DNA of 23,844 nucleotides from Oscillochloris sp. ZM17-4. Lineage in GTDB: Bacteria; Chloroflexota; Chloroflexia; Chloroflexales; Chloroflexaceae. Both the position numbers and the translations under genes were made by a program. The notes beneath the pieces were generated by a model, which saw only the letters and a program-made list of their open reading frames with translations, did not search any database and was not told where the DNA came from. Below are positions 2,472-23,303 of this stretch, one piece after another (the stretch's first letter is position 1; each line of letters begins with the position of its first letter). The stretch lies in assembly GCF_019599295.1 (NCBI RefSeq), contig NZ_JAIEWN010000016.1, positions 59,839 to 83,682 of the forward strand, read 5' to 3'.

Positions 2472-2512
2472 ACAGGGGACAGGGGACAGGGGACAGGGGA
2501 CAGGGGACAGGG
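2472..2512 (+). repeat. (ACAGGGG)x5.9 heptamer tandem array. G-tracts are spaced for a G-quadruplex. A degenerate inverted partner (CCTGTNCC units) lies at 2558-2587
   Basis: Read directly: 'acaggggacaggggacaggggacaggggacaggggacaggg' begins 2 nt after the TAG stop at 2468-2470. 'cctgttccctgt...tgtgtcctgtcccc' occurs 45-75 nt downstream, just before the RBS 'ggagg' of the next gene. Confidence 0.9.
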
Positions 2513-2606
2513 TGATGTTACAGACTGGTATCTCATATCGCTCACGTATGCGCTCCGCCTGTTCCCTGTACGCTGTGTCCTGTCCCCTTGTCTTACTGGA
2601 GGAACG

Positions 2607-5262: not shown

Positions 5263-5335
5263 GTAGGGCCGAAGCATTCGCACCGGATGAATCTGCGTGT
5301 CGCACATGCATAGGGTGCGAATGCTTCGGCCCTAC
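5263..5335. repeat. 22-bp perfect inverted repeat with a 29-nt loop between convergent genes. Member of a GTAGGG...CCCTAC hairpin family
   Basis: 'gtagggccgaagcattcgcacc' at 5263-5284 is the exact reverse complement of 'ggtgcgaatgcttcggccctac' at 5314-5335. The loop contains the AATCTGC heptamer. Confidence 0.85.
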
Positions 5336-5477: not shown

Positions 5478-8012
5478 TCAGCCCTTCTTGATCACCTCGC
5501 GGGAGCGCCCGCCCTCGGCCGGGCCGACCACCCCCTGCTGCTCCAGCAGGTCGATCAGCTGGGCGGCCTTGCTGTAGCCGATGCGCAGCCGGCGCTGGAG
5601 CAGCGAGGCCGAGGCCCGCTGGTGCTGCTCCACCAGGGCCTTCGCCTGCGGCAGCAGCTCGTCCTGCTCGTCCACGCTGAGGAACTCCGCCGGCGGCCGG
5701 TAGGCCTCGTCGGGGGTTGGGGGCTGGGGGGTGGGGGTTGGGGTCGCGCCCGCCTCGGTCGGCCGTGGGCCAGGGAGGGCGCCGCTGAAGGGCGGGCCAT
5801 TCATCCCCAGCGAGCCGCCGGCCTTCGCCTTCACCTCCTCCTCGGTGTCCGGGGGCAGCGCCTTGCGCCAGAAGTCGACGATCTTCTCGACCTCGCGGTC
5901 GGAGACGTAGGTGCCCTGGACGCGCACCAGCTTGGCGGAGTCGGCGGCCATGTAGAGCATATCGCCGCGGCCAAGCAGCTGGTCGGCGCCGGGGCCATCG
6001 AGGATGACCCGGCTGTCGACCTGGGAGGTGACGGCGAAGGCGATCCGCGAGGGGAAGTTGGCCTTGATCAGGCCGGTGATCACATCCACCGAGGGGCGCT
6101 GGGTGGCGATGATAAGGTGGATGCCGGTGGCGCGGGCCATCTGGGCCAGGCGGCAGATGTAGGTCTCCGTCTCATCGGGGGCCATCATCATCAGGTCGGC
6201 CAGCTCGTCGATGATGATCAGGATGTAGGGCATCGGCTCCAGGTCGGCGCGCTTGCGGGCCAGCAGCTTATAGCTCTCCAGGTTGCGGCAGCCGTGGCGG
6301 GCGAAGATCTTATAGCGCCGCTCCATCTCGCGGGTGGCCCACTTCAGGGTCGGCACCACCCGCTCCAGCTCCGTCACCACTGGCGAGAGCAGGTGCGGCA
6401 CCCGGTTGTAGACGATCATCTCGACCATCTTCGGGTCGACCAGGATGAGCTTCAGGTCGTCGGGGCTATGCTTGAGCAGCAGGCCGCAGAGGAAGGCGTT
6501 GATCGCCACCGACTTGCCGGAGCCGGTCGAGCCGGCCACCAGCAGGTGCGGCATCTTAGTCATGTCGGCGATGATCGGCGTGCCGCTGACGTCCTTGCCG
6601 AGGGGCAGCTTGAGCTTGCCGCGGCTGGCCTCAAACTCCTCGCTGTCGATCACCTCGCGCATGCTGACCATGGCGATCGCCGAGTTGGGGATCTCGATGC
6701 CGACGGCGGCCTTGCCGGGGATGGGCGCCTCGATGCGGATGGAGGGCGCGGCCAGGGCCAGGGCTAGGTCGCGCTCCAGCGAGGTGATCTTGCTGACCTT
6801 GACGCCCACGGCGGGCTGCAGCTCGAACTGCGTCACCGCCGGGCCGGGGTTCACATTCACCACCTGGGCCTCGACCTTAAAGCTGGCCAGGGTCTCCTCG
6901 ATCAGGCGCGAGCGGGCGCGGATATCCTCGTCGCTGATGCCCGCCTCGGCGCTGTAGGAGTCGAGCATCTCCATCACGGGCAGCGGCCAGGCTCGGTGTA
7001 CCGCCGGCACATCGAAGCCGTCCAGCGCCTCCTGCACCGTCTCGACCACCGGCTCGGGGGTGGGGCGGGGCAGGACGCTGCGCTGGGCCGGCTCTGGGGC
7101 CGGGGCGGCGGGCGGGCCGCCCAGGGTCGGGGCTGGCGCGCCCTTGCCGGCGGCGGGCGCGGCGGGCGCGGCCGGCGGCGGCGCCGCGCCCCTGCCGGCG
7201 GCGGCGGGGTCGCCGCCGGGGCGCTGGAAGAGGCTGGCCTTTGTGGTGCGGGCGGCGATCGGAGTCTGGGTCAGGTCATCATCCGCGCCGAGGGGCGGCG
7301 GCTGGAAGGGCAGGTCGTCGTCGGCCAGCGCGGGTCGGCGGGGCGCGGCGGGGCGGCGCGGCGCGCCCCAGAGCAGCGCCCAGAAGCGGGCGGCGCGCAC
7401 GCTCATGCCGATGATCAGCTCGCGCAGGGTGATGTTAAACGTCAGCATGACCCCGGCCAGGCCGAGCACGATCACCACTAGCACCGCCGCGGGCCGGCCG
7501 ATGCTGCGGTCCAGCCCCTCGACCACCCCGGAGCCGATCAGGCCGCCGCCCTGGTCGATCCGGTCGGCCAGATTGATCTCGTGGAAGGGGAACTCCAGCA
7601 GGCCGAGGATGGCCGCCAGGACGAGCACGGTGCCCAGGGCGTTGGCCCCAGACAGCTGCGCGTCCTGCATGCGCTCCTGGATGAGGATGGCCACGCCGAG
7701 CAGGCCCAGCGTCACCGGCACCACCAGCGCCCCGCTGCCGAAGGCCCGCCGGACCACCTCCAGGTAGAGCCCTCCGACGCCGCCAGCGACCCCGGTGAAG
7801 AAGAAGACCAGCGTCACCAGGGCGACGGTGATCAGCGCGAGGGCGAACAGCTCGCGCTGGTGCTCGGGGCGCAGCGAGATCGCGAAGGCCGGCTTCTCCT
7901 TGCGCGCGCCCCGGCGCGCCGGCGCCCTGCCCTTGCCCGCCGGCCGCCGGCCGCCGCTGCCGCCCGCCTTATTCCCGCCCCGTGAGGCCATAGGGTGCCC
8001 TCTCCTGCGCAT
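5478..8012 (-). CDS. ftsK: DNA translocase FtsK: N-terminal 4-TM domain, Pro/Ala-rich linker, RecA-like motor and C-terminal gamma (winged-helix) domain
   Basis: Walker A 'GSTGSGKSVAINA', Walker B 'LIIIDELADLMM', 'IHLIIATQRPSVDVITG'. Gamma domain 'LLPQAKALVEQHQRASASLLQRRLRIGYSKAAQLIDLLEQQGVVGP'. An alternative start M lies 7 codons in, with a better-spaced 'aggag'. Confidence 0.95.
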   Translation of the reverse strand: MRRRGHPMASRGGNKAGGSGGRRPAGKGRAPARRGARKEKPAFAISLRPEHQRELFALALITVALVTLVFFFTGVAGGVGGLYLEVVRRAFGSGALVVPVTLGLLGVAILIQERMQDAQLSGANALGTVLVLAAILGLLEFPFHEINLADRIDQGGGLIGSGVVEGLDRSIGRPAAVLVVIVLGLAGVMLTFNITLRELIIGMSVRAARFWALLWGAPRRPAAPRRPALADDDLPFQPPPLGADDDLTQTPIAARTTKASLFQRPGGDPAAAGRGAAPPPAAPAAPAAGKGAPAPTLGGPPAAPAPEPAQRSVLPRPTPEPVVETVQEALDGFDVPAVHRAWPLPVMEMLDSYSAEAGISDEDIRARSRLIEETLASFKVEAQVVNVNPGPAVTQFELQPAVGVKVSKITSLERDLALALAAPSIRIEAPIPGKAAVGIEIPNSAIAMVSMREVIDSEEFEASRGKLKLPLGKDVSGTPIIADMTKMPHLLVAGSTGSGKSVAINAFLCGLLLKHSPDDLKLILVDPKMVEMIVYNRVPHLLSPVVTELERVVPTLKWATREMERRYKIFARHGCRNLESYKLLARKRADLEPMPYILIIIDELADLMMMAPDETETYICRLAQMARATGIHLIIATQRPSVDVITGLIKANFPSRIAFAVTSQVDSRVILDGPGADQLLGRGDMLYMAADSAKLVRVQGTYVSDREVEKIVDFWRKALPPDTEEEVKAKAGGSLGMNGPPFSGALPGPRPTEAGATPTPTPQPPTPDEAYRPPAEFLSVDEQDELLPQAKALVEQHQRASASLLQRRLRIGYSKAAQLIDLLEQQGVVGPAEGGRSREVIKKG

Positions 8013-8075
8013 TCTAGTGCCGTTAGCCGGCAGTATAGCACATCTGCGCGGGGGGTGTCTCCCCGCAGGGCGGCC

Positions 8076-8147
8076 GGGGGTGGCGAAGCCACCCCCGAAG
8101 GTTTTTAGTGGGATTTTGGCGGCGAAGCCGCCAAAATCCCACTAAAA
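8076..8147. repeat. Two adjacent perfect palindromes with GAA loops and a GGC-GAA-GCC centre: a 9-bp stem (8076-8096) and a 21-bp stem (8103-8147)
   Basis: 'gggggtggc gaa gccaccccc' and 'ttttagtgggattttggcggc gaa gccgccaaaatcccactaaaa' are each an exact reverse complement around a 3-nt centre. Confidence 0.9.
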
Positions 8148-8207: not shown

Positions 8208-8260
8208 TGTTGTTTTGGCCAACATGGCCAGCTTCGCTGGCCATGTTGGCCAAAACAACA
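8208..8260. repeat. 25-bp-stem perfect palindrome with a TTC centre
   Basis: 'tgttgttttggccaacatggccagc ttc gctggccatgttggccaaaacaaca'. The core 'atggccagc-ttc-gctggccat' is identical (in reverse complement) to the core of the palindrome at 22376-22420. Confidence 0.9.
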
Positions 8261-8670: not shown

Positions 8671-8704
8671 GGTGTAGGGATGCAGCGTGCTGCGTCCCTA
8701 CACC
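8671..8704. terminator. Bidirectional hairpin (16-bp stem with one G.U pair) shared by convergent yggX and the ATP-grasp gene. It overlaps the ATP-grasp stop codon
   Basis: 'ggtgtagggatgcagc gt gctgcgtccctacacc'. The core 'gtagggaYgcagcgtgctgcgtccctac' recurs at 19318-19353. Confidence 0.6.
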
Positions 8705-9936: not shown

Positions 9937-10018
9937 AGTTTGGTGCATCTCATACCAACTGGAATTGAGCAATCCGCATACGCGCCGCCGCCAGAGCGCG
10001 TTGAAACGCCATGCACGG

Positions 10019-10050
10019 CAATCTGCAATCCAAAATCTGCAATCTGCAAT
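10019..10050 (+). repeat. (CAATCTG)n heptamer array, 4.5 units with one degenerate. The same heptamer recurs at 20199-20223
   Basis: 'caatctgcaatccaaaatctgcaatctgcaat' lies between two minus-strand genes. Confidence 0.9.
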
Positions 10051-10054
10051 GGTA

Positions 10055-12103
10055 TCAGTCTCGCGTGAGCAGCTTCGACGCGGACTCCAGCGCCGTGTCG
10101 GCGGCGCACACCCGGTTCCGCCCGGTCGCCTTGGCCATATAGAGCGCCCGGTCGGCCGCGCGCAGCAGCGTGTCGCCATCGCCGCCGTGGGCGGGGAAGC
10201 TCGCCACGCCGGCCGAGATCGTGCAGCGCAGCTCGTGGCCGCCGTACTCGACGCACATATCGGCGAAGGCCTGGCGCAGATCGTCGGCGCGCTCCAGTGC
10301 CATGTCGAGGGTGGCGGTGGCCATGATCACCACAAACTCCTCGCCGCCGTAGCGGCAGGCCGTGTCCATCTGGCGGGTGTGACCGTGCAGCAGCGCGCCC
10401 GTGGCCTGGAGCATGAGGTCGCCGGCCCTGTGCCCGTAGGTGTCGTTGAGCTGCTTGAAGTGGTCGATGTCCATCATCATAACACTAAGCGGGGCTTGCT
10501 CGCGCGCGGCGTGGGCCAGCCCCTGCTCGAGGATCTCTTCCATGTAGCGCCGGTTGAACAGGCCGGTGAGCACATCGTGGGTGGCCTGCTCGCGCAGCTG
10601 CGCCTGGAGCTGCTGGATCTCGGCCAGCTGCGCCTGGAGGCTCTGGTTCGCCGCGCGCAGCGCCTCGTCGGCCCGCCTGCGCTCGCTGATGTTGCGGCCG
10701 ACCCCGTTGATCGCAAGCTGGCCGGTCTCCGGGCTGATGTAGTAGTGGGTCACAATCTCCACCCAGACCGCCGAGCCATCTTTGTGCGGCTGCTCAAGCT
10801 CGTTGACGAAGGTGTGCTGGGTCGGGTCGGCCAGAAATGTGGCGATCCGCTGCTGGATCAGCCCATGGATCGCCGCCTGCATATCCGGCGGCAGCCCATG
10901 ATAGACGACTTGGCCCAGCAGCTCCTCCGGCTTGTAGCCCTGGAGCTGCTCGATCGATGGGCTGATATAGGTCAAGCGCAGGCTCTGGGTGTCGATGCTC
11001 CAGATCACATCCTGCATGTTCTCGGCCAGCAGGCGGTAGCGCCGCTCGCTCTGCCGCAGGGCCTCCTCGGCCCGCTTGTGCGCGGTGACATCGTGCAGAA
11101 TGAACAAGTGCCCCACCGGCCTGCCGCGCCGATCATTGATCGTCGAGACGACGAGGTCGTAGGTGCGCTGCCGCGCGCCGACGCCGACCGTCACCTCAGA
11201 CGTGCCCGCTGACGTGCGAGAGTGGCCCCGAAGCAGATCGGCCCAGTCGGGTGGCAGCGCCTCGACCGGCTCGCCGATAGCCTGCGCGGGCATCCCGCAG
11301 GTGACCTTCGCGGCGCTGTTCACGTCGGCGATCTGCCCCTGTGTGTCTAGCACGATCACCAGGTCCTCGATATGATCCATCACCGCACCGCGGGCGATCG
11401 GGACAATGATGAAGATCTGGCCGTGCAGCAGCGCCCAGCCGTAGATCACGCCGGTGCAGGCGAGCAGCATTGGCGTCCAGGCATAGCCGGGCAAGGGCGT
11501 GATGCGTAGCGTGGTGAGGATGTCGGCCAGGAAGGGGATGAGGATGCCCAGGATGAGCAGCAGCATTTCCCGCCGGCGCTGCGCACGGGTCACCAGGGAT
11601 ACGGCGAGGATCGCCAGCGCGCAGATGGTGAGCACGCTCCCGTACCCGTAGTAGACCCAGTACCAGGGGCCTCGGCTGAACACAACATTGCTCAGCGGGC
11701 CCTCGGCGATCAGCCGGGGGCTATGGCGAAACAGCGGGTAGAGCGGCGGGGTCAGGGTCAGCACGACGGTGACGGCAGGGATGATCAGGAGGGCTGCCAG
11801 ACGTTGGCGGGTGATCCATGCGGCGTGGCCGGTGTACTGGATCACCATGGTCAGGATGGCCGGCGCGATGAAGCCGCCGGGGATGTAGATCAGGCGGAGC
11901 AGGAGCACGCGCAGCTCAAGCGGGGCGACGACCAGGCTGAGGGCGAAGATCAGCGAGAACAGGGAAGACAGCCACATGAGCATGCGGAAGGGCCGGCACG
12001 CCGGCAGGCGGCGATAGTAGCCGGCGTAGACGGCGATGGAGGCGAGGAGCACGGCGCTGGCGAGCGGTAGCCAGACGTAGGGCGTATAGAGCATGGCCCA
12101 CAC
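10055..12103 (-). CDS. Membrane sensor diguanylate cyclase: N-terminal ~8-TM domain, tandem PAS domains, coiled coil, GGDEF domain
   Basis: GTG start with 'ggaggtg' RBS. Hydrophobic N-terminal 230 aa. PAS-like 'VIWSIDTQSLRLTYISPSIEQLQGYKPEELLG'. GGDEF core 'DVLTGLFNRRYM', 'MMDIDHFKQLNDTYGHRAGD', 'RYGGEEFVVIM', 'LYMAKATGRNRV'. Confidence 0.85.
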   Translation of the reverse strand: MWAMLYTPYVWLPLASAVLLASIAVYAGYYRRLPACRPFRMLMWLSSLFSLIFALSLVVAPLELRVLLLRLIYIPGGFIAPAILTMVIQYTGHAAWITRQRLAALLIIPAVTVVLTLTPPLYPLFRHSPRLIAEGPLSNVVFSRGPWYWVYYGYGSVLTICALAILAVSLVTRAQRRREMLLLILGILIPFLADILTTLRITPLPGYAWTPMLLACTGVIYGWALLHGQIFIIVPIARGAVMDHIEDLVIVLDTQGQIADVNSAAKVTCGMPAQAIGEPVEALPPDWADLLRGHSRTSAGTSEVTVGVGARQRTYDLVVSTINDRRGRPVGHLFILHDVTAHKRAEEALRQSERRYRLLAENMQDVIWSIDTQSLRLTYISPSIEQLQGYKPEELLGQVVYHGLPPDMQAAIHGLIQQRIATFLADPTQHTFVNELEQPHKDGSAVWVEIVTHYYISPETGQLAINGVGRNISERRRADEALRAANQSLQAQLAEIQQLQAQLREQATHDVLTGLFNRRYMEEILEQGLAHAAREQAPLSVMMMDIDHFKQLNDTYGHRAGDLMLQATGALLHGHTRQMDTACRYGGEEFVVIMATATLDMALERADDLRQAFADMCVEYGGHELRCTISAGVASFPAHGGDGDTLLRAADRALYMAKATGRNRVCAADTALESASKLLTRD

Positions 12104-12384
12104 CTCCGGCAGAGGACACTGTCATAGTGATGTCCTTAGGGCGATGGTTATTTTACTGCTGTTTTAAAAGATGAAGAGTGAGGGAAGATGGAATGAGATT
12201 ATACACCCTGTGTCAAGCGACGCATCGGGCTTTTGCAGGAAGGCGACACAAATAGCGTGCATAGCCGCAGTGGCTGGCACGAGTTTCTGAGTACGGCGAA
12301 GCCGCCTCGGTGGGTGACGAGGTTACAAGACTTATGCCAGCGCTACAGGTACTCAGGAGCGAACTGCTCCTCGGTGGGCTCCGC

Positions 12385-13749
12385 TCAGCAGTACCAGGGC
12401 TCGCTCAGGTAGGGGATGGGCGGGCGGGGCAGCAGGTGCGCCAGGCTAGGCCGCGCCCCCGCGCCGATCTGGGAGTCCACCAGATCCCACAGCTTCTCAA
12501 AGAATTGCGCCCGTGTCTCGCCGCGCGGCCCGCTGCCCTGGGCCAGCCGCAGCGCGGCCCGCTGGAGCGTGTCCATCGCCGGATCGGGGTGGCGCCAGGG
12601 GTAGACCAGCCCGGCCGGGTCGAACGGCCCGACCAGATCCCTGACCTCGTCGAGGTGGAGCAGCCAGGAGCCGGACGGGATGAGCAGGCGGATGGCGTAC
12701 TGCACCGGCGAGACGCTCTCGACCAGGCCGAGCTCAGTGATCGCGCGCAGGAAGTCGGCATAGACCTGGCGGCTCGTCCAGGGCGTGAAGGCCACAAAGG
12801 TCGCGTTCAGGCCGACCCCGGCCTCGCGCAGCAGCCCGGCGGCGCGGGCCACATCATCGCGGGTGTGGCGCTTGTCCAGCCGCTCAAGGATGCCCTCGTC
12901 CAGCGCCTCGACCGCGCTCGTCACCAGGGCGCAGCCGGTGTCGCGCAGCTCGGGCAGCAGCTCGGCGTGGCGCAGCAGGTGCTCGACCTTGATCGTCACA
13001 TCGTAGGTGATGCCGGGGTGCTCGGCGTGCAGGGCGCGCACGATCTTCATTGCGTGGCCGGGCCCGTTGAGGAAGTCCGGGTCGCCGAAGGTGATATGGG
13101 CCGCCCCGGCGGCCACCTGGCGGCGCACGTCCTCAAGCACCACATCCCTCGGCACGGTGCGGAAGCGCCCGCCGTAGACGGGGACGATCGGGCAGTGGCG
13201 GCAGGTGTGCTTACAGCCGCGGCTAGCCTCGGTGTAGCCGGCGGCCCGCCGGCCCTCGGCGGTGATCAGGGCGGCGTAGGCCAGCGGGCCGGGCAGGCCG
13301 GCGCGGTCGGGGGGGATGAACGACAGTAGGGGCGTAACAGCGCGCCTGCTCTCATCTGCTGAGGATTCATCTGCCGCTGTTGCGCCCCTACCCTTGTATA
13401 TATCCACCAGGGCGGCCTCAAACTCCCCGCCGACGCAGGCGTCGGCGCCGAGCGCGCGCAGATGATCGGCGTTGAGCGGGGCGTAGAGGCCGTAGCAGAC
13501 GATGGTGGCCTGCGGGGCGAGGGCGCGCAGCTCGGGCAGCAGCTCGGCGGCCAGGCGGGTGGCCGTGTGCATCGGCACATACAGACCGATCAGCGCCGCC
13601 CGCGCCGCCGCCGCCCGGTCGAGCGGCTGGAGCGAGGTGTCGATAGCGAGCACCTCGGCCCCGGCGCGGCGCAGCCATGCCGCCGGCGAGGCCAGCCCGA
13701 AGGGCTGGTGCCCGAGCTCGTAGGTTGAGATCAGCAGCGCGAGAGGCAT
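12385..13749 (-). CDS. B12-binding-domain radical SAM enzyme (class B)
   Basis: N-terminal Rossmann-like B12 domain 'MPLALLISTYELGHQPFGL...IVCYGLYAPLN'. Radical-SAM cluster motif 'SRGCKHTCRHCP' (CxxxCxxC). 'ITFGDPDFL'. The start codon abuts the heptamer array, with no SD. Confidence 0.8.
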   Translation of the reverse strand: MPLALLISTYELGHQPFGLASPAAWLRRAGAEVLAIDTSLQPLDRAAAARAALIGLYVPMHTATRLAAELLPELRALAPQATIVCYGLYAPLNADHLRALGADACVGGEFEAALVDIYKGRGATAADESSADESRRAVTPLLSFIPPDRAGLPGPLAYAALITAEGRRAAGYTEASRGCKHTCRHCPIVPVYGGRFRTVPRDVVLEDVRRQVAAGAAHITFGDPDFLNGPGHAMKIVRALHAEHPGITYDVTIKVEHLLRHAELLPELRDTGCALVTSAVEALDEGILERLDKRHTRDDVARAAGLLREAGVGLNATFVAFTPWTSRQVYADFLRAITELGLVESVSPVQYAIRLLIPSGSWLLHLDEVRDLVGPFDPAGLVYPWRHPDPAMDTLQRAALRLAQGSGPRGETRAQFFEKLWDLVDSQIGAGARPSLAHLLPRPPIPYLSEPWYC

Positions 13750-13751
13750 AA

Positions 13752-13905
13752 TGAATGTTGAATGTTGAATGCTGAATGTTGAATGTTGAGTGGGTGGGGG
13801 TTTCGAAAGCTGGAGCTAGTATAACACGCCGCATAGCCTACAAAGCGCTCCATCTGCCCGGCGCCCTTGGCATTCAACATTCATCATTCATCATTCATCA
13901 TTACC
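13752..13905. repeat. Inverted heptamer arrays: (TGAATGT)5 at 13752-13789 and the complementary (CATTCAN)5 at 13871-13905, separated by about 80 nt
   Basis: Read directly. The right array supplies the TAA stop (13901-13903) of the MVP-like gene. The left array abuts the ATG of the radical-SAM gene. Confidence 0.9.
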
Positions 13906-15289
13906 GCGTCTGGATGCGCAGGTCCACGTCCTCGGGGGTGAAGAAGAGGCTGGCGCTGCCGGCGCTGAGCGCGGTCAGAGCCTCCTGCTTGCGCAGAGTC
14001 TGGAAGACGGCCAGCTTCTCGGCGGGGGCCAGCTCGGCGCCGAGGGCGTCGAGGAAGGCCCGCACCCGCCCGGCCTCGGCGGCCCCGCCGATCTCGGCCT
14101 GAGCCAGCTCCACGATGCGGCGCACATCCATCAGCCGACCGCGCAACTCCTCGGCCTCGGTCTCGCCGCGGATCTGGCGCAGCCGCACCTCGTTCTCGCT
14201 CTCCTGCTGCTGGAGCCGGTTCAGCCGGTTCGTCGTCTCCTGGATGATCTCCTGCAGCACCCGCTGGGTCGCCGGGTCCTTGCAGGCGACCGCGCGCACC
14301 TCGACGGCGTGCAGCACCACCCCGCGCTCGGCGTAGAAGCCGTCGGCCCCGCCCAGCACCGCCTCGCGGATGATCGCGTTGAAGGCGGCCAGGAAGCGCT
14401 CCAGGCTCACCTGGGAGACCGACTGGATGATCTGGCTGCGCGCGTGTGAGCAGACGTCGCCGGGCGTATCGTCGGTGGTGCGCACCATGCCCTGGACATC
14501 GACGATCTGCCAGAAGAAGGTGATCCCGATCGTCAGCTCGACGTTGTCCTGGGTGCGGGCCTCAAGCTCGTACCACATAAACTTCGGGCGCTGGTCGAGG
14601 TGGGTGATCTTCAGCTCGCGGCGGTCCTTGTGCAGGCCGCTCGACCAGCGGAAGGTGACCAGCTCGTCGTAGGGGCCGAGGAAGAAGGCCCGCTCGGCGT
14701 CGGCCCCGCTGCGGATGCGGTAGGCCCCGCTGCGCTCCTTGATCACCACGGCCTCGTGGTCCTCCAGGCGCACCCGGCGGCGCACCTCGACGACCTGCTG
14801 GGTCGGCGCGGGCGCGAAGACCTGCGGCGCGATGATCAGCTCCAGCCCGCCGGCGACGGTGTCGCGCACCAGCACCGCCGTCTGCTCATCGATGTTGATC
14901 CCGTCGCGCACATCCTCCAGGATGGCCTCGGTCGGGCTGAGGACGACCCGCCCCTCGCCGCGCTCGACCCGGATCGCGCCGCTGCTCTGGTCGAGCAGGC
15001 GCAGGTACTGGCCGCGCTTGAGCGGGATGGCCTGGAGCTGCTCGTCCACCTCCTCGCCGGGGCCGAGGAAGACCAGCCTCGGGCCGACCTCGTTGCGCAC
15101 CTCGCCGCTGAGCGTGTCGCGCACGCGCAGGTAGTCGGTTGGGCCGAGGGCGATCGCCTCGCGCCGGCTGACGCGGGAGAGGGCCGGCGTGATCACCGCG
15201 CCGGGGCCGTTGGCCACCCGCCGGCGGGTCGGCGTCTCGATCAGCAGCTGCTCGTCCTCCTTGAGGAAGGCCACCCATGGGATGATCAT
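13901..15289 (-). CDS. Major vault protein (MVP) homolog: about 3-4 MVP repeats, SPFH-like shoulder domain and C-terminal coiled coil (cap-helix-like). 463 aa
   Basis: Start chosen at 'MIIPWVAF' (ATG 15289-15287, 'aggag' 7 nt upstream); the listed ORF's first 53 aa translate the palindrome and leader. Repeat region 'FLGPGEEVDEQLQAIPLKRGQYLRLL' resembles eukaryotic MVP '[30 protein letters not shown]'. Shoulder 'DNVELTIGITFFWQIVDV...TPGDVCSHARSQIIQSVSQVSLERFLAAFNAIIREAVLG' resembles 'DHARLQLQLAYNWHFEV...[42 protein letters not shown]'. 'IIQETTNRLNRLQQQESE' resembles '[24 protein letters not shown]'. Confidence 0.7.
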   Translation of the reverse strand: MIIPWVAFLKEDEQLLIETPTRRRVANGPGAVITPALSRVSRREAIALGPTDYLRVRDTLSGEVRNEVGPRLVFLGPGEEVDEQLQAIPLKRGQYLRLLDQSSGAIRVERGEGRVVLSPTEAILEDVRDGINIDEQTAVLVRDTVAGGLELIIAPQVFAPAPTQQVVEVRRRVRLEDHEAVVIKERSGAYRIRSGADAERAFFLGPYDELVTFRWSSGLHKDRRELKITHLDQRPKFMWYELEARTQDNVELTIGITFFWQIVDVQGMVRTTDDTPGDVCSHARSQIIQSVSQVSLERFLAAFNAIIREAVLGGADGFYAERGVVLHAVEVRAVACKDPATQRVLQEIIQETTNRLNRLQQQESENEVRLRQIRGETEAEELRGRLMDVRRIVELAQAEIGGAAEAGRVRAFLDALGAELAPAEKLAVFQTLRKQEALTALSAGSASLFFTPEDVDLRIQTR

Positions 15290-15312
15290 CGCGGTGCTCC
15301 TGTGTCTTGTGT

Positions 15313-15360
15313 AAGATAGTGCTATACTGACACTAATTAGTGTCAGTATAGCACTATCTT
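15313..15360. promoter_or_regulatory. 48-bp perfect, spacerless, AT-rich palindrome in the promoter/leader of the MVP-like gene. Candidate operator for a dimeric regulator
   Basis: 'aagatagtgctatactgacactaa' at 15313-15336 is the exact reverse complement of 'ttagtgtcagtatagcactatctt' at 15337-15360. It is about 67% AT in a 70%-GC genome. It lies 24 nt upstream of the MVP start and contains TATACT/AGTATA and TTGACA hexamers. Confidence 0.6.
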
Positions 15361-15416
15361 GACAAAACGCAAGCACACATCCCGCTGCTCGCCTGGGCGA
15401 GCACCGTGGCTCGCCC

Positions 15417-16005
15417 CTACTGCTGCTGCTGCATCTGCTGGGCCTCAAGCTCCGCCTCGGCGGGGGTGGGCGGGGCGATCGCCGGCAGCACGCCCTCGTC
15501 GGGGATGAAGGCCTCGGTGGGCACCACCTTCACGCCCACCTCCAGCGAGCTCTCGGCGCGCCCGCGGTAGACGCCCTTCGTCGGCGGGACGTCGGCGTAG
15601 TCGCGGCCGACGGCGACGCGGATGTGGCGGTCGCGGGCGATCAGGTTGTTGGTCGGGTCGAAGCCGACCCAGCCGAGGCCGGGCAGGAGCGCCTCAACCC
15701 AGGCGTGCGAGGCGTCGCGCTCGGAGCGGTCGTGGTCCTCGACGCGGTGGTAGAGGTAGCCGCTCACATAGCGGCAGGGGATGCCCAGCGGTCGCACCAG
15801 GGCGATCATAATATGGGCGAAGTCCTGGCAGACGCCCTTGCGTTTGGCGAGGGCCTCATCGATCGGCGAGTCGACCGTCGTCGTCTGCGGCGCGTAGGCG
15901 AAGGTGCGGTACATGCGCCCGGTGATCTCGTGCAGGAGCGAGAGCGGGTCGCCGCGGCGGCGGAGGTCGAGCTGGCTCGACAGGGCGCTCAGCAGGGGCG
16001 AGGGG
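15417..16005 (-). pseudogene. Transglutaminase-like (Cys-His-Asp) core domain, 5'-truncated gene fragment with no start codon
   Basis: 'LLHEITGRMYRTFAYAP...KRKGVCQDFAHIMIALVRPLGIPCRYVSGYLYH...DASHAWVEALLPGLGWVGFDPTN'. High GC3 on the minus strand persists only to about 16005. Further upstream the minus frame is antisense-like junk, with no ATG/GTG plus RBS. Confidence 0.7.
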
Positions 16006-16010
16006 CGGCG

Positions 16011-16487
16011 GTGATCCTCGGCGGGATGGCCCTGCTGGCGATGAACGTCGAGCGCTTCAACCTGCTGGGGGCCAGCAGCGGCGTGCGCGTGCAGACCTGG
16101 GCCTCGGCCCTGGCCATGCTGCGCGACCACCCGATGGGCGTCGGGCTCGACCAGTTCGGCCGGCTCTACCCGCAGTACATCGACCCGGCGCTCGCCGCGA
16201 CAAACGAGATCAACACGGCCCACCCGCACAACTTGCTGCTCGACATCGCCCTGCGCATGGGGCCGCTCGGCCTGATCGCCTTCGGCTGGCTGCTGGCGAT
16301 CTTCTACCGGCGCATGATCGCCAGGGCTGGCCAGCCGTCGCCCATGCGGGCCGTATATGTCGGCGCCCTGGCGGCCATGACCGGCGCGCTGGTCCACGGC
16401 ATGGTCGACTCCTTCTACTTCTGGCCCGACCTGGCCCTCGCCTTCTGGCTATTCCTGGCCCTGGCGATCTGGCCCGCGGCGGAGTAG
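16011..16487 (+). pseudogene. O-antigen ligase (Wzy_C/WaaL family) C-terminal ~160 aa, 5'-truncated fragment
   Basis: 'VRVQTWASALAMLRDHPMGVGLDQFGRLYPQYIDPALAATNEINTAHPHNLLLDIALRMGPLGLIAFGWLL...' is the periplasmic loop plus last TMs of O-antigen ligases, which are normally 400+ aa with about 12 TM. The listed plus ORF upstream of 16005 is antisense to the transglutaminase fragment. Confidence 0.65.
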
Positions 16488-16541
16488 CGCAGAGCGTAGC
16501 GCGTAGAGCGGCAAACATCCTGTGCTCTGCGCTCTGCGCTC
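16487..16541. repeat. Inverted heptamer-type arrays (AGAGCGT-like x3 and GCTCTGC x2) forming a 10-bp perfect inverted repeat 'gcgcagagcg'/'cgctctgcgc'
   Basis: Read directly, immediately after the TAG of the O-antigen-ligase fragment. Confidence 0.8.
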
Positions 16542-16601
16542 ACGTGATACAATGTCCCTGTATCAACCCATGCGCCCAGGGGGCGCCGGAGGCCCAGGAT
16601 C

Positions 16602-16799
16602 ATGCCCTTCTACAAAGACATGCCGCTCGTCTGCCGCGCCTGCGGCGAGACATTCATCTTCACTGCCGGGGAGCAGGAGTTCTACGCCGACAAGGGCTTC
16701 CTCAACGAGCCCACGCGCTGCCCGAAGTGCCGGGTGCGCCGCGAGAGCGCCGGCGGGCGCGGGCGGCGGGATGCCAAGGAGGTAAAAGGTAAAAGGTGA
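16602..16799 (+). CDS. Small Cys4 zinc-ribbon protein (zf-trcl, 'probable zinc-ribbon domain' family)
   Basis: 'CRACGETFIFTAGEQEFYADKGFLNEPTRCPKCR' matches the zf-trcl pattern C-x2-C-G-x-F-x-F-x3-E-Q-x-F-Y-x3-G-F-x-N-x-P-x-R-C-x2-C-R. RBS 'ggagg'. A TACAAT -10-like hexamer lies at 16548-16553, inside a 7-bp inverted repeat (tgataca/tgtatca). Confidence 0.75.
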   Translation: MPFYKDMPLVCRACGETFIFTAGEQEFYADKGFLNEPTRCPKCRVRRESAGGRGRRDAKEVKGKR

Positions 16800-16838
16800 A
16801 AGGTAAATCTTTTACCTTTCACCTTTTACCTTTTACCT
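16780..16838. terminator. 28-bp-stem perfect hairpin built from GGTAAAA heptamers with a 3-nt loop. Bidirectional terminator spanning the stop codons of both convergent genes
   Basis: 'aggtaaaaggtaaaaggtgaaaggtaaa tct tttacctttcaccttttaccttttacct'. The TGA at 16797-16799 and the minus-strand TGA (tca at 16819-16821) both lie inside the arms. Both proteins therefore end in ...VKGKR. Confidence 0.75.
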
Positions 16839-17730
16839 TTGCCCTCAGCACGCCGGGCGTCATCTGGATGCTGATCAGATCGCTGTTACGGATGTATGGC
16901 TGATCCAGGTCGCCTTCTTCAGTGTAATCCAACGCCTCGGCCAAGGCTAACACCTCGCTGCCAGTATGGATGCGGTAAGGAAAGCCCCAGGCCGCCGTGC
17001 CGCGCATGAAGATGAAGGCCCGCCGCGCCGGCCAGGCCTGGTCGATCGCGAAGTCATCGGCCCTCGGCGCGGGCCGGTAGCCGCCGCCCGGCCCCTGCGG
17101 CCGGCGCGGCATGCGCCCCGCCGCCAGCAGGCCGACGGCCTCGGCCAGCAGCCGCCCGCCCAGGGCCGCCGCCCGCCCCTCGACCTCCTCCCAGCCCGCG
17201 CCCGCTGCCAGATCGGCCCCGCCCTGCGCCACGATGTCGCCCGTGTCCAGCCCCGGGTCCATCAGGTGTACCGTCGCCCCGACGCGCTCCGCGCCCGCGC
17301 GCAGCGCCCAGAAGATCGGCTCGGGGCCGCGCAGATCGGGCAGCAGGGAGGGGTGGACGTTCAGGAAGCCGTGGCGGGGCAGGCCCAGCAGGGCCGGCGG
17401 GATGCGCCAGGGCCAGCACGCCACACAGGCCAGGTCGGGCCGCAGCGCGGCCAGGGCGGCCAGCGCCGCCGCGCCGGCGGGCCGGCCGAGGGCCAGGGCC
17501 GGGATCGCGTGGGCGGCCGCGATCTGGAGGATGTTCGGCGGCGCGGCCCCGGCGAGCGGCAGCAGCCCCGCTGGCGCGGGCGTCGGCGGCAGCCGGGCGA
17601 GCGGCGGCGCCCCCGGCGGCGCGGGCACGGCCACACACACCACCTCGGCCCCCGCGTCGAGCAGGGCCGCCAGCGGCGGCGCCGAGAAGCGCCCCGGCAT
17701 CCCGAAGAAGAGTACCCGTAGCGGCTGCAT
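16819..17730 (-). CDS. fmt: Methionyl-tRNA formyltransferase family protein (Fmt-like, both domains). An alternative start lies 10 codons upstream at 17760
   Basis: 'MQPLRVLFFGMPGRFSAPPLAALLDAG' is Fmt N-terminus-like. The catalytic region 'HGFLNVHPSLLPDLRGPEPIFWALRAGAERVGATVHLMDPGLDTGDIVAQ' matches the Fmt 'HxSLLPxxRG...TGVT.H.M....DTGD' motifs. The listed 541-aa ORF's N-terminal 238 aa are antisense-like junk. Confidence 0.75.
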   Translation of the reverse strand: MQPLRVLFFGMPGRFSAPPLAALLDAGAEVVCVAVPAPPGAPPLARLPPTPAPAGLLPLAGAAPPNILQIAAAHAIPALALGRPAGAAALAALAALRPDLACVACWPWRIPPALLGLPRHGFLNVHPSLLPDLRGPEPIFWALRAGAERVGATVHLMDPGLDTGDIVAQGGADLAAGAGWEEVEGRAAALGGRLLAEAVGLLAAGRMPRRPQGPGGGYRPAPRADDFAIDQAWPARRAFIFMRGTAAWGFPYRIHTGSEVLALAEALDYTEEGDLDQPYIRNSDLISIQMTPGVLRAKVKGKR

Positions 17731-17854: not shown

Positions 17855-19210
17855 ATGTTTGAGATGTCGATGAGCCCCGAGATGGGCCAGCGCGTCACGC
17901 CGGCCCTGCTCAACCTGGCCCACCTGCTCAGCCTGCCGAGCATGGCCCTGGAGCAGGCCGTGCGCCAGGAGCTTGAGGAGAACCCCGCCCTTGAGGAGGT
18001 GGAGGCCGAGGACTCGCTCTGCCCGCGCTGCGGGCGGCCGCTCATCGAGGGCGTCTGCCTGCGCTGCGATCTCCCCTCGACCGGCGACGATCTCTCCGGC
18101 TCCTCGCCCGATGACGACGGCCTCGACCCGCTGCTCTTCGTGGCCGCGCCGCGCTCGCTCAGCGAGTCGCTGCTCGACGACCTCTGCGCCAGCCTGCCCG
18201 CCAGCGAGCGCCCGATCGCCCTCGCGCTCATCGGCAGCCTCGACGACCAGGGCTTTCTCCTCGACGCACCCGACGATATCGCCGCCAGCCTGGGCGTCGC
18301 CCCCGCCCGCGTCGTGGCCGCCCTGGAGCGCCTGCGCGAGATCGGCCCGCCGGGGATCGCCGCCCGCGATAGCCGCGAGTGTATGCTCGCCCAGATCGAC
18401 GACCTGGCCGACCAGGGCATCGCGCACCCCCACGCCCGCGCCATCGTGGACGCGCACCTGGAGGATCTCGGCGCGCGCAGCTACCGCAAGATCGCCCGCG
18501 CCCTGGGCGTCAGCGTCGCCGAGGTCGCCGACGCCCGCGCCTTCATCGCCGCGAACCTCTGGCCCTACCCCGCCCAGTCCGCCGACCCCTCCGCCCGCGC
18601 CGCCTCGCGCACCCGCTACCGCACCCCCGACATGGCTATCAGCATGATCGAAGGCGCCTTTATTGTCGAGGTGCTCAACTCCCAGCGCCGCGCCCTGCGC
18701 CTCAACCCGCTCTACCAGGAGCTCTCCGCCCGCGCCGCCACCCTCGAAGACGCTGAGCGCGCCCACGTCCAGGAGTTTATCTCCCGCGCGCGCGTCTTCC
18801 TGGCCAACCTGCGCCAGCGCGAGTCGACCCTCAAGCGGATCGGCGAGGTCATCGTCGAGCGCCAGGACGGCTTCCTTCGCTACGGCGTGCGCCACCTGCT
18901 CCCCCTCACCCGCGCCGAGATCGCGGTGACGCTGTGCATCCATGAGTCTACGGTCAGCCGGGCGATCAGCGATAAGACCGCCCAGATCCCCGCCGGCGAC
19001 CTGCTGCCCGTCAGCGAGTTCTTCGTGGCCGCCCGTGGCGTCCAGGATGTGCTGCGCGCGCTCATCGCCGCCGAGGATACGTCCAGCCCGCTGAGCGACC
19101 AGGCGCTCGCTGCGCAACTGGCCGACCTCGGCTACCCGATCGCCCGCCGCACCGTGGCGAAGTACCGCGATGTCATGAAGATCCCGCCCGCCCAGATCCG
19201 CGGCGCGTAG
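17855..19210 (+). CDS. rpoN: RNA polymerase sigma-54 factor RpoN, with a CxxC-x7-CxxC zinc-ribbon-like insertion after region I
   Basis: RBS 'gaggag'. Region I 'LLNLAHLLSLPSMALEQAVRQELEENPALE'. HTH and RpoN box 'ARRTVAKYRDVMKIPPAQIR' at the C-terminus. Insertion 'CPRCGRPLIEGVCLRCD' at residues about 56-72. Confidence 0.95.
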   Translation: MFEMSMSPEMGQRVTPALLNLAHLLSLPSMALEQAVRQELEENPALEEVEAEDSLCPRCGRPLIEGVCLRCDLPSTGDDLSGSSPDDDGLDPLLFVAAPRSLSESLLDDLCASLPASERPIALALIGSLDDQGFLLDAPDDIAASLGVAPARVVAALERLREIGPPGIAARDSRECMLAQIDDLADQGIAHPHARAIVDAHLEDLGARSYRKIARALGVSVAEVADARAFIAANLWPYPAQSADPSARAASRTRYRTPDMAISMIEGAFIVEVLNSQRRALRLNPLYQELSARAATLEDAERAHVQEFISRARVFLANLRQRESTLKRIGEVIVERQDGFLRYGVRHLLPLTRAEIAVTLCIHESTVSRAISDKTAQIPAGDLLPVSEFFVAARGVQDVLRALIAAEDTSSPLSDQALAAQLADLGYPIARRTVAKYRDVMKIPPAQIRGA

Positions 19211-19317
19211 TGCGCTTTCAGCGCAGGGGTTAGGAGTCGGGAGTCGGGGGTTGGGCGTTGTGATGCGACAGCACGCAGCATCGTGTCCAAAAAGGTTGCT
19301 TGAATCTGCACGAGGGA

Positions 19318-19368
19318 CGCCGTAGGGACGCAGCGTGCTGCGTCCCTACGGCGTTCTCTTTTTTTGTT
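19318..19368 (+). terminator. Rho-independent terminator of rpoN: 17-bp GC-rich stem followed by 'ttctctttttttgtt'
   Basis: 'cgccgtagggacgcagc gt gctgcgtccctacggcg' plus a T-run. The core is the same as the hairpin at 8671-8704, with compensatory outer base pairs. Confidence 0.85.
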
Positions 19369-19405
19369 AAAATTCTCTATTGATATAAAATATTTCGCCA
19401 AACTA

Positions 19406-19434
19406 TTGACAAATTTTTCTCAGAGTGATAATAT
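19406..19434 (+). promoter_or_regulatory. Near-consensus sigma-70 promoter: TTGACA, 17-nt spacer, extended -10 TGaTAATAT, plus an A/T-rich UP-like tract. It sits in a 140-nt AT-rich island
   Basis: 'TTGACAaatttttctcagagTGaTAATAT' is preceded by 'ttaaaattctctattgatataaaatatttcgcc'. It lies 68 nt upstream of the ATG at 19502. The region 19355-19495 is about 65% AT. Confidence 0.65.
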
Positions 19435-19501
19435 TGACGTGATGATAGTGAAAAGCGACATCGTGATGGTAAATATTACTATAAGGAAAGCGAGGCCGCC
19501 C

Positions 19502-19759
19502 ATGCTGCACGACACCTACCTGCACGAGCGGCTCGCCCGCGCGGCGGGGGAGCCCAGCAAACGCGAGATCGCCACCCGGCTCGCCATCGCCGAGCTGCGC
19601 CTGCGCCCGGGCCTGGCCCGCCGCGCCGCCCGCCGCGGCGGCCGGCTGCTCATCCGCGCCGGCGCGTGGCTGATGGCCTACGGCGCCGGGCGCGAGGCCC
19701 GCCTGCGGCGCAGCGCGCTGCGCACCCACCCCTCCGTCACCACATGCTCGCGAAATTAA
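19502..19759 (+). CDS. Small hypothetical protein (85 aa), Arg-rich with one hydrophobic helix. First gene of the cassette
   Basis: High GC3 in frame. RBS 'gaggccgccc' region. 'LLIRAGAWLMAYGAG' is hydrophobic. No recognisable family. The listed ORF start at 19364 lies in the AT-rich promoter and is unlikely. Confidence 0.5.
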   Translation: MLHDTYLHERLARAAGEPSKREIATRLAIAELRLRPGLARRAARRGGRLLIRAGAWLMAYGAGREARLRRSALRTHPSVTTCSRN

Positions 19760-20198: not shown

Positions 20199-20223
20199 CA
20201 ATCTGCAATCTGCAATCTGCAAT
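20199..20223 (+). repeat. (CAATCTG)x3.5 heptamer array ending in the palindrome TGCAATTGCA, 18 nt upstream of the next start codon
   Basis: 'caatctgcaatctgcaatctgcaattgca'. The same unit occurs at 10019-10050. Confidence 0.9.
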
Positions 20224-20240
20224 TGCACGAGGTGACACCC

Positions 20241-20624: not shown

Positions 20625-23218
<2,594 letters not shown>

Positions 23219-23229
23219 AGGGCTACTCC

Positions 23230-23266
23230 GTAAGGGCGCAGCAGCCTACGGCTGCTGCGCCCTTAC
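23230..23266. repeat. 17-bp-stem perfect hairpin 'cgtaagggcgcagcagcc tac ggctgctgcgcccttacg', a diverged member of the GTAGGG...CCCTAC family. It lies in the divergent PyrK-like/priA leader region
   Basis: Read directly. It sits 12 nt upstream of the PyrK-like ATG and overlaps the spacing of its 'ggag' RBS. Confidence 0.8.
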
Positions 23267-23303
23267 AGTGTACCATCATCCGACTCCCTGCTATACTGAG
23301 GCC

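Follow-up and report, generated by a model that had tools for sequence, protein, structure and literature searches.

In a 23,844-nt stretch of the Oscillochloris sp. ZM17-4 chromosome (contig NZ_JAIEWN010000016.1; below, the window, meaning this whole stretch of ~24 kb), several gene junctions carry short tandem arrays of a 7-nt unit, some of them facing a complementary array. The question that this locus raises is what such arrays are and what they might do between genes. They are genuine heptanucleotide tandem arrays of the short tandemly repeated repetitive (STRR) or 'heptameric simple sequence repeat (SSR)' kind, lying in a 70%-GC Chloroflexales chromosome; the kind of repeat is already known, and the Chloroflexales host is what is new. 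We think it reasonably probable that the paired arrays are gene-end hairpins, predicted to serve as terminators or to protect mRNA 3′ ends, and possibly to gate translation between the SPFH and the B12/radical-SAM (rSAM) genes, built from heptamer modules that would have arrived as new DNA before slippage remodelled them. Arrays without a partner would be half-elements following the same orientation rule.

The analysis of the source genome covered the window. Period-7 arrays were called with Tandem Repeats Finder (TRF), which returned 11 in 23.8 kb. Nine of these are intergenic, although intergenic DNA, which is less GC-rich, makes up only ~2.5 kb (10% of the window), and they occupy 7 of the 14 junctions; the remaining two are GC-rich and lie within ftsK. 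Exact runs of at least three copies at period 7 numbered six, against none in the 30 dinucleotide shuffles that set the chance level, and at period 6 or 8-12 the window contained no such run. The signal is far above chance and is confined to period 7. At least six different units are present (ACAGGGG, CAATCTG, TGAATGT, CATTCAT, AGAGCGT, AGGTAAA and GGAGTCG), and a search of the whole window with Rfam 15 at the gathering score gave no match. The original prediction, of STRR-like heptamer arrays concentrated at gene boundaries, is borne out in that TRF found arrays at every place it had named. It had also pointed to single copies of AATCTGC at 5289 and 19299; these actually lie at 5290 and 19303, and we rejected them as meaningful since the count of two equals the chance expectation (2.1). 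The arrays and arms are as follows, as TRF calls unless stated otherwise.

2472-2512, plus strand: (ACAGGGG)5.9, a G-rich 5′ arm, 1 nt past the TAG stop (2468-2470) of the FHA/peptidase-C11 gene; it fits the G4-N3 quadruplex motif.
2558-2588, plus strand: a degenerate C-rich complementary arm of xxCCTGT units (found as an inverted repeat, 84% over 31 nt), ending ~18 nt before the FtsX ATG (2607), directly upstream of a GGAGG Shine-Dalgarno sequence.
5712-5743, minus strand: (AACCCCC)4.6 in sense (TRF and translation), encoding TPTPTPQPPTP in the linker that joins the FtsK motor and gamma domains; this weak case may be an in-frame heptamer array or just Pro-rich, GC-rich low complexity.
10018-10050, minus strand: GCAATCT x4.7 (76% matches), in sense (ATTGCAG)4.7, 33 nt, unpaired, 4 nt downstream of the GGDEF TGA stop (10055-10057); this is the canonical 33-nt form of the widespread CAATCTG/GATTGCA family.
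13752-13789, minus strand: TGAATGT x5.4, the leader array, in sense (ACATTCA)5.4, 3′ arm of a long-range hairpin with 13871-13902.
13871-13902, minus strand: CATTCAT x4.6, in sense (ATGAATG)4.6, a G-rich 5′ arm overlapping the SPFH TAA stop (13901-13903).
16486-16510, plus strand: AGCGTAG x3.6, a 5′ arm overlapping the TAG stop (16485-16487) of the small membrane protein gene.
16520-16541, plus strand: CTGCGCT x3.1, the 3′ arm of the 16486-16541 hairpin.
16780-16807, plus strand: AGGTAAA x4.0, the 5′ arm of a perfect palindrome, encoding the zf_Tbcl end EVKGKR and its TGA (16797-16799).
16809-16840, plus strand: CTTTTAC x4.6, the 3′ arm; read on the minus strand, it specifies KVKGKR of the convergent formyltransferase-like product and the TGA (16819-16821) of that gene.
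19226-19262, plus strand: a degenerate G-rich array, GGAGTCG GGAGTCG GGGGTTG GGCGTTG (TRF row 19233-19248, x2.3), unpaired, 16 nt past the rpoN stop (19208-19210).
20199-20227, plus strand: (CAATCTG)4.3, C-rich orientation on sense, unpaired, ending 13 nt before the SHOCT-like ATG (20241), just ahead of a GGTGA Shine-Dalgarno sequence.

Inverted partners occur at four junctions only. The arms at 16780-16807 and 16811-16838 are 28 nt long, 100% complementary and 3 nt apart; those at 13754-13785 and 13871-13902 are 32 nt long, 91% complementary and 85 nt apart, their units differing at one of seven positions. A short pair (16486-16510 and 16520-16541) is separated by 9 nt, and at 2474-2504 and 2558-2588 the complementarity is 84% over 31 nt, the second arm being degenerate and no clean array. 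The two CAATCTG arrays and the degenerate GGAGTCG array stand alone. Where the original prediction had counted at least six regions with an array followed by its complement, the arrays are thus all present, but the inverted partner is restricted to these four, and the CAATCTG arrays that it flagged as paired have neither a partner nor a significant fold (z = +0.4 for 10018-10050 and -1.0 for 20199-20227, compared with shuffled sequence). By the same measure, the paired regions are predicted to fold: 16775-16845 at -43.7 kcal/mol (z = -9.8) on the plus strand and -44.4 kcal/mol (z = -9.4) on the minus strand, 2465-2606 at -71.7 kcal/mol (z = -4.8), 13745-13910 on the minus strand at -56.9 kcal/mol (z = -4.3) and 16476-16550 at -37.5 kcal/mol (z = -2.7). 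In a consensus scan, both strands of the palindrome at 16786-16832 score as terminator-like, the T-run coming from the unit TTTTACC; as a prediction, this agrees with the earlier suggestion of hairpin terminators.

The position of the arrays was read against a map of 18 genes, built from calls based on third-codon-position GC (GC3) and from Pfam matches: FHA/peptidase-C11, FtsX, histidine kinase, FtsK, Fe-trafficking protein (FeTraf), ATP-grasp ligase, 7TM-PAS-GGDEF, rSAM, SPFH, transglutaminase-like, small membrane protein, zf_Tbcl, formyltransferase-like, rpoN, DUF2089, SHOCT-like, DUF4097 and PriA. Arrays that are G-rich on the sense strand begin at the upstream stop codon, at offsets of +1 (C11/FHA), +4 (GGDEF), -2 (SPFH) and -2 (small membrane protein), and of -20 and -22 nt for the zf_Tbcl and formyltransferase-like stops, both of which fall in a mirrored variant unit, AGGTGAA/TTTCACC. 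Arrays in the C-rich orientation precede start codons, namely those of the rSAM and SHOCT-like genes; (ACATTCA)5.4 ends 2 nt before the rSAM ATG (13747-13749), with no Shine-Dalgarno sequence evident. The unpaired arrays keep to the same orientation, G-rich on sense after a stop (GGDEF, rpoN) and as a C-rich, G-poor leader before a start (SHOCT). Two further suggestions, that the heptamers form leader elements at start codons and even provide stop codons, therefore hold: the leader array abuts the rSAM ATG, two TGA codons lie inside arrays, and the TAG of the small membrane protein gene and the TAA of SPFH overlap array ends. Over all the high-GC loci fetched, with genes in the comparison loci called by a GC3 heuristic, 46 of 74 G-rich-on-sense arrays lay within -45 to +10 nt of the upstream stop, compared to 10 of 67 in the C-rich orientation.

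Orthologous junctions in relatives show what occupies these sites when the arrays are missing. Locus L081 (70% GC, rSAM 84% identical) has the same SPFH-rSAM-GGDEF-ATP-grasp order and, in 18.9 kb, no comparable heptamer array, only one 2.3-copy GC-rich period-7 row; its SPFH/rSAM spacer measures only 63 nt and contains a simple stem-loop. The C-termini of SPFH and GGDEF are equally long in the window and in L081, the SPFH tail being identical and the GGDEF tail differing at a few residues. Hence, this suggests that the arrays were added exactly at the native stops. At the convergent zf_Tbcl/formyltransferase-like junction, each lineage has a different palindrome: the heptamer palindrome in the window, a 20-bp palindrome resembling repetitive extragenic palindromic (REP) elements in L081 (CGGGGCCGCTCGTAGGGCGC...GCGCCCTACGAGCGGCCCCG, centred on GTAGGGCGC...GCGCCCTAC) and a plain 11-bp stem in L206 (rSAM 83% identical), with the two stop codons mirrored in or at the stem in all three. 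The converse replacement may be found at the FeTraf/ATP-grasp junction, where the window has a REP-like palindrome (8674-8701) and L206 holds what, judged by eye, may be an array-like one. This interchange of hairpins at orthologous junctions is our main argument for regarding the array pairs as gene-end hairpins.

One leader array is conserved. The rSAM protein next to it is 100% identical to a protein that bears the name of Oscillochloris sp. ZM17-4. Next to the conserved flank GTGTTATACTAGCTCCAGCTTTC, the rSAM leader site holds (TCAACAT)5.3 in L205 (rSAM 86% identical) and a diverged unit, (GCACTCA/GCACGCA)4.7, in L206, where the array has no partner. L081, L211 and L212 have no array at this site, and L211 and L212 have a REP-like GTAGGGG...CCCCTAC palindrome there. 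The copy number is 5.4, 5.3 and 4.7 in the window, L205 and L206, respectively; the nearest relatives found for this comparison have rSAM proteins 83-86% identical, and the closest species-representative genomes in GTDB are Chloroflexaceae and Oscillochloris metagenome-assembled genomes (MAGs) at 70-75% identity. L206-L210 are five separate sequencing-run assemblies, and their TRF rows are identical. From these orthologues, the leader array evidently predates the ZM17-4 lineage. An assembly artefact, which had been offered as a ground for refutation, is ruled out, as no array exceeds 41 nt and the orthologous leader array is found in independent assemblies (L205, L206-L210).

In most of the Chloroflexales relatives (L001, L002, L003, L006-L010 and L206), the transglutaminase-like, rSAM and ATP-grasp genes adjoin. 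In the window (9937-15448) and in L081, the SPFH and 7TM-PAS-GGDEF genes are interposed, and in the window heptamer arrays lie at two of the new junctions. The window also has a second hairpin family, REP-like GTAGGG...CCCTAC, at 8674-8701, 19322-19349, 5263-5335, 13309-13408 and 23224-23272. Two of its copies are near-identical 28-mers (0.01 expected by chance); one has a T-run and is terminator-like, one has 35-nt arms and one, imperfect, lies in the rSAM coding linker. REP-like palindromes take the place of window arrays in relatives at two sites, the zf_Tbcl/formyltransferase-like junction (L081) and upstream of rSAM (L211/L212).

Array pairs also occur inside protein genes. A CoxM/S-type fusion enzyme of the Roseiflexaceae type has a ~23-aa in-frame insertion (…ADCRLQIAD…IYNLQS…) that is a translated GATTGCA/CAATCTG pair, and the Kouleothrix enzyme has a TTGGGAC/CAAGCCC pair at the identical site; homologues of Herpetosiphonaceae, Ktedonobacterales and others have nothing at this position. 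Within the rSAM linker (residues ~117-147), L205 has a CAGGAGG/CCTGCCT pair, a Roseiflexaceae MAG has a GACCAAC/TCGTCGT pair, the window gene has an imperfect REP-like palindrome, and the Kouleothrix insertion, with its DDRRPT-like periodic peptide, is read as probably array-derived. In-frame array pairs in enzymes suggest that whole modules arise as new DNA and not solely by local amplification. Whole inverted pairs in frame were located at L195 2462-2539, L202 10608-10682 and 1862-1939, L205 469-542 and L012 2011-2102, in CoxM/S-type fusion, glycerate-kinase-like and rSAM enzymes of which the outgroups lack the insertion. In a metagenomic non-ribosomal peptide synthetase adenylation region (L147 7530-7630 and 7855-7925), period-7 and period-8 arrays (GGAGACAC, GCAATCT, GGTCAGG) sit within a long open reading frame (ORF), between the NPF and RLYKTGD motifs.

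Beyond the window, arrays of this kind are unevenly spread. The 80 comparison loci drawn from an rSAM search (~1.3 Mb) contained 22 period-7 arrays only, hosted by Terriglobia, Vicinamibacterales, Methylomirabilota, Anaerolineae, Caldilineaceae, Chloroflexaceae and Roseiflexaceae; an inverted pair, GAATCAA/TTCTTGA, occurs in a 73%-GC Vicinamibacterales MAG. Two loci of Kouleothrix sp. GCA_016717335.1 (70% GC; L202 and L203) have 17 and 11 period-7 rows per 21 kb at a TRF score of at least 30, many in inverted pairs and a few of them GC-rich low complexity, and some of its units (GACCAAC, CAGTAGT, GAGTTTT/AACTCAA, CCTTCAT) are also present in other genomes. A metagenome scan with (CAATCTG)3, the one heptamer scanned, matched at least 120 contigs, with a median GC of 62% among the matches listed. 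Clustering of 121 contigs (120 metagenome contigs and L081) left 118 clusters, so that CAATCTG is found at two loci in the window and at least 118 independent metagenomic loci, whereas the other window units were each seen once in these 24 kb, and five of the six window units had no tandem copies in the ~2 Mb of other loci searched. CAATCTG is therefore not specific to a locus, contrary to the earlier claim, and other units recur between genomes. Taxonomy was assigned to 2 of the 120 metagenome contigs: one array-rich contig has a protein 100% identical to a Roseiflexaceae MAG protein, and another is Gemmatimonadaceae-like. These two contigs (L195 and L119, respectively), from two phyla, have the CAATCTG unit, the pair polarity and the ~33-nt arm length in common.

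When pairs were pooled over loci as adjacent arrays at most 200 nt apart (n = 66), 41 were inverted and 1 was direct, and the first arm had more G than C in 35 of the 41. All 22 inverted pairs listed for the CAATCTG family have the order 5′-(GATTGCA)n...(CAATCTG)n-3′; a single reversed pair belongs to a near-family (L095). The copy-number mode is 4.0-4.9 both for arrays of other units (82 of 195) and for CAATCTG arrays (61 of 129). The latter start with (G)ATTGCAG in 88 of 125 cases, end with CAGATTG or GCAGATT in 84 of 125 and are 31-34 nt long in 54 of 125, and arrays of other units peak at 31-32 nt.

Our favoured reading may be spelled out as follows. The module would be a short array, 28-41 nt long, of ~4-5 copies. 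Where the complement of a G-rich array follows it, as at four junctions, the transcript, or single-stranded DNA, could fold into a hairpin of 20-30 bp, the 5′ arm of which begins at the upstream stop codon or overlaps it, and such array hairpins would do the job of ordinary gene-end stem-loops. The hairpin would be a bidirectional intrinsic terminator at the convergent zf_Tbcl/formyltransferase-like junction and a terminator or mRNA 3′-end protector between co-directional genes; from SPFH to rSAM, the 3′ arm would reach the downstream start codon, so that the hairpin could couple or gate translation. The modules would have been gained as new DNA, since they are absent from the syntenic relative and form clean insertions in conserved proteins of related genomes, and would later have been altered by slippage, since the number of copies varies and all units of an array change together. 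We infer both the terminator or stabiliser function and this route of origin from sequence comparison and predicted folds. Several observations weigh against the hairpin reading. The fold at 16476-16550 is marginal, 3 of 200 shuffles folding as well, and a U-rich tail is found on one of the four hairpins (16786-16832), the other three being stable without a clear U-tract. The strict arm polarity, the ~32-nt arm length, the fixed phase of the array ends and the recurrence of CAATCTG in different phyla are not explained by hairpin formation plus slippage, and the unpaired arrays have no structural rationale.

Known heptamer systems share much with the window arrays, and our literature search found no description of heptamer repeats for Chloroflexota. 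The consensus units of STRR1-3 are CCCCAGT, TTGGTCA and CAACAGT. No window unit equals any of them; ACAGGGG comes closest, since CCCCTGT, its reverse complement, has a single mismatch to STRR1. The STRR repeats of Calothrix, Nostoc and Anabaena are alike in the 7-nt unit, the short arrays, the several families per genome and the mostly non-coding location. They differ in their host, which here is a Chloroflexales at 70% GC and not a heterocystous cyanobacterium, and inverted pairing dominates here, whereas few paired repeats are reported in Nostoc (PMC4692102), the G-rich heptamer of which is GGGGA(C/T)T. The deletion of heptamer repeats in Nostoc recO constructs alters promoter activity (preprint, bioRxiv 10.1101/2022.06.06.494920). 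According to Mrazek 2007, as summarised in PMC4679880, the most frequent long SSRs of many genomes are heptamers, and high-GC Burkholderia, Xanthomonas and Actinobacteria are among these. In Xanthomonas (~65% GC), Rehm et al. 2015 described GGGAATC arrays, ~90% intergenic and with a preference for about four units, the G-rich strand of which lies on sense at most 50 bp after stops and on antisense upstream of ORFs, with 70-75 convergent inverted pairs per genome near stop codons (PMC4692102). All these rules hold here: intergenic location, stop-proximal G-rich sense strand, convergent G-rich-first pairs and about four units. The Xanthomonas type differs in having one dominant unit, read as forming G-quadruplexes (G4), as compared to at least six here, mostly without G-tracts. 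No GGGNATC-type unit is present in the window, where only ACAGGGG has G-tracts, and stop codons and C-terminal residues are array-encoded here.

In Geobacter metallireducens, Aklujkar et al. 2009 reported several classes of 3-5 tandem units of ~7-9 nt, between and within genes; these sites and the 'H4' elements are mostly paired on opposite strands with variable spacing, are annotated as putative global-regulator sites and have insertion sequences at a fixed distance (PMC2700814). The window resembles them in its short tandem modules, several classes, opposite-strand pairs, variable spacing and occurrence within and between genes, the phylum and the unit sequences being different. The presence of heptamers in Xanthomonas, Geobacter, Burkholderia and Actinobacteria, together with Kouleothrix (70% GC), which is equally array-rich, contradicts the view that they are not expected in a 70%-GC genome. 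MacGregor 2015 described TAACTGA repeats (2-6 copies) in marine Beggiatoaceae, some Cyanobacteria and Bacteroidetes, a few nt from start codons lacking a canonical ribosome-binding site, with occasional in-frame copies and almost no inversion (one indirect repeat in 170 sets; PMC4679880). Arrays abutting starts and a unit common to distant phyla, as CAATCTG is to Chloroflexales-like and Gemmatimonadaceae-like contigs, are shared features, but TAACTGA is one dominant, hardly inverted unit, whereas the arrays here are mostly inverted pairs at stop codons.

Intercistronic REP hairpins stabilise upstream mRNA. REP arms, 20-40 nt of unique sequence, occur in hundreds of near-identical copies and are linked to a REP-associated tyrosine transposase (RAYT). 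Like REP elements, bacterial interspersed mosaic elements (BIMEs) and REP doublets (REPINs), the array pairs are hairpin doublets at gene 3′ ends, and they occupy the same junctions as the REP-like GTAGGG...CCCTAC in the window genome and its relatives. Unlike REPs and REPINs, their arms are internally periodic and vary in sequence by locus, spacers and flanks are unrelated, and no RAYT was found among the 18 window genes. Rickettsia palindromic elements are unique sequences of 100-150 nt inserted in frame in protein genes. Related Chloroflexales likewise carry array pairs in frame in loops or linkers (CoxM/S-type, rSAM), with only the weak FtsK-linker case in the window itself.

The main alternative to gene-end hairpins sees the arrays as small insertion modules, non-autonomous and either mobile or templated, similar to REP/REPIN or miniature inverted-repeat transposable elements, for which a dedicated enzyme would insert ~32-nt arms, G-rich first, any hairpin function being secondary. 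We hold this to be possible but tentative. The stereotyped length and start and end phase of the CAATCTG arrays, with the 31-32-nt peak of the other families, are consistent with it, as are a copy-number mode of 4-5 without geometric decay, the fixed polarity, the independence of the CAATCTG loci, the clean in-frame pairs with different units at one CoxM/S-type site that is empty in outgroups (the rSAM linker being alike) and the fixed distance of insertion sequences from the paired Geobacter sites. However, nothing is conserved outside the arrays: about 40 inverted pairs inspected by eye had no conserved loops, flanks or target-site duplication, and their spacers (4-168 nt) were unrelated. 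The lack of tandem copies of five of the six window units in the ~2 Mb searched leaves no high-copy family for these five, the 18 window genes include neither a transposase or RAYT nor a reverse transcriptase, and the solitary leader array of L206 implies that two arms need not arrive together. A broader proposal, which we regard as doubtful, is that a dedicated polar DNA-insertion or templated-synthesis process acts in several phyla, where it would write ~32-nt (4-5 x 7 nt) modules, G-rich arm first, on both sides of a site, would preferentially replace stop-codon hairpins and would also act in frame in protein linkers. It is unlikely that the arrays are functionless by-products of a polymerase slippage that favours 7-nt units, piling up in unconstrained DNA. 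This would fit a polymerase-footprint proposal for the prevalence of heptamers (Mrazek 2007, as related in PMC4679880 and PMC4692102), the absence of arrays from L081 without visible consequence, the diversity of the window units and the drift in concert of unit sequences among L205, L206 and the window. Slippage debris would not account for inverted partners that are far too frequent (41 of 66, compared to one direct), for an orientation tied to stop codons, for stereotyped length and phase, for a leader array kept at ~5 copies across species with rSAM proteins 83-86% identical or for whole pairs inserted where outgroups have no seed sequence.

Quite unlikely, too, is a role as reiterated sites for a single-stranded nucleic acid or DNA binder, one heptamer per subunit (a cold-shock-protein-like, S1-like or CsrA-like protein or a global regulator), that regulates the neighbouring genes. 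The rSAM leader array abuts a start without an evident Shine-Dalgarno sequence, as do the Beggiatoaceae TAACTGA arrays, for which binders have been proposed (PMC4679880); the Nostoc recO result and the global-regulator annotation of the Geobacter sites by their authors point the same way, and a module fixed at 4-5 units would be in keeping with an oligomer of defined size. Against this, the six or more window units would need many binders or a very loose specificity, no candidate binder was identified, and a binder would predict neither the strong inverted pairing nor the abutment on stop codons. G-quadruplex formation, as proposed for the GGGNATC repeats of Xanthomonas and Nostoc, has a textbook candidate in (ACAGGGG)5.9 on the sense strand after a stop, and the four-unit preference has been linked to it (PMC4692102), but only one window unit has G-tracts, which makes this very improbable here; as a general explanation it was rejected, since units without G-tracts (CAATCTG and others) share the 4-5 copy mode. 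Least probable of all, to the point of being nearly negligible, are phase-variable contingency loci in which copy number switches adjacent genes, a possibility that the original prediction had raised. Although SSRs near gene starts are the classical substrate, none of the window arrays falls in the 5′ part of a coding sequence or separates a -35 from a -10 element, a 7-nt unit past a stop codon cannot shift a relevant reading frame, and the leader copy number is stable in three species, and identical in the five run assemblies, while the unit evolves in concert, which argues against phase variation.

Several other elements of the window concern the neighbouring genes. The rSAM gene appears to encode a selenoprotein: on the minus strand, the reading frame continues past a TGA (12385-12387) through AEPTEEQFAPEYL to a TAG (12343-12345), the resulting C-U-A-E-P tail corresponds to the NCBI/UniRef name 'CUAEP/CCAEP-tail radical SAM (seleno)protein', and the UGA has a small hairpin (GGAGCAGUUCGCUCC) downstream of it, a candidate selenocysteine insertion sequence (SECIS) element. 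The sequence of the UGA region is also found in L205, L206 and L211. Perfect hairpins, the arms of which are 3 nt apart (GAA, TTC or similar), fill the FtsK/FeTraf spacer at 8075-8097, 8103-8147 and 8208-8260, and the core ATGGCCAGC-nnn-GCTGGCCAT of the last recurs at 22376-22420 within the DUF4097 gene, where its 21-nt arms form a perfect palindrome. At 15313-15360 there is another perfect palindrome, 48 nt long and AT-rich (AAGATAGTGCTATACTGACACTAA / TTAGTGTCAGTATAGCACTATCTT), both strands of which contain TATACT. The longest SPFH ORF includes it, but the true SPFH start is probably downstream of it, given that the L081 orthologue has 462 aa compared to 515 aa in the window; the palindrome may be an operator or promoter. 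Within the AT-rich region 19351-19490, TTGACA-17-TAATAT (19406-19434) looks like a strong promoter; it is followed by a small ORF rich in Arg and Ala (~19503-19759) and then by the DUF2089, SHOCT-like and DUF4097 genes.

Heptamer arrays are among the commonest unexplained repeats of bacteria, and to their hosts we add array-rich high-GC Chloroflexales (Oscillochloris sp. ZM17-4, Kouleothrix and the Roseiflexaceae-like contig) and a Gemmatimonadaceae-like contig. In practice, gene callers will mis-set C-termini and start sites near arrays, and array hairpins will escape terminator predictors tuned to GC-rich stems. Replacement by other hairpins is seen at one junction and one leader site, and the FeTraf/ATP-grasp junction may be similar. 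In summary, the Chloroflexales arrays offer testable regularities, as they start at stop codons, have the G-rich arm first, keep arms of ~32 nt whatever the unit and form in-frame pairs in enzymes. If a dedicated polar process, at work here in Chloroflexales and in Roseiflexaceae-like and Gemmatimonadaceae-like genomes and reported from Xanthomonas, Geobacter and cyanobacteria, did turn out to be true, the arrays would represent a new class of miniature genetic element.

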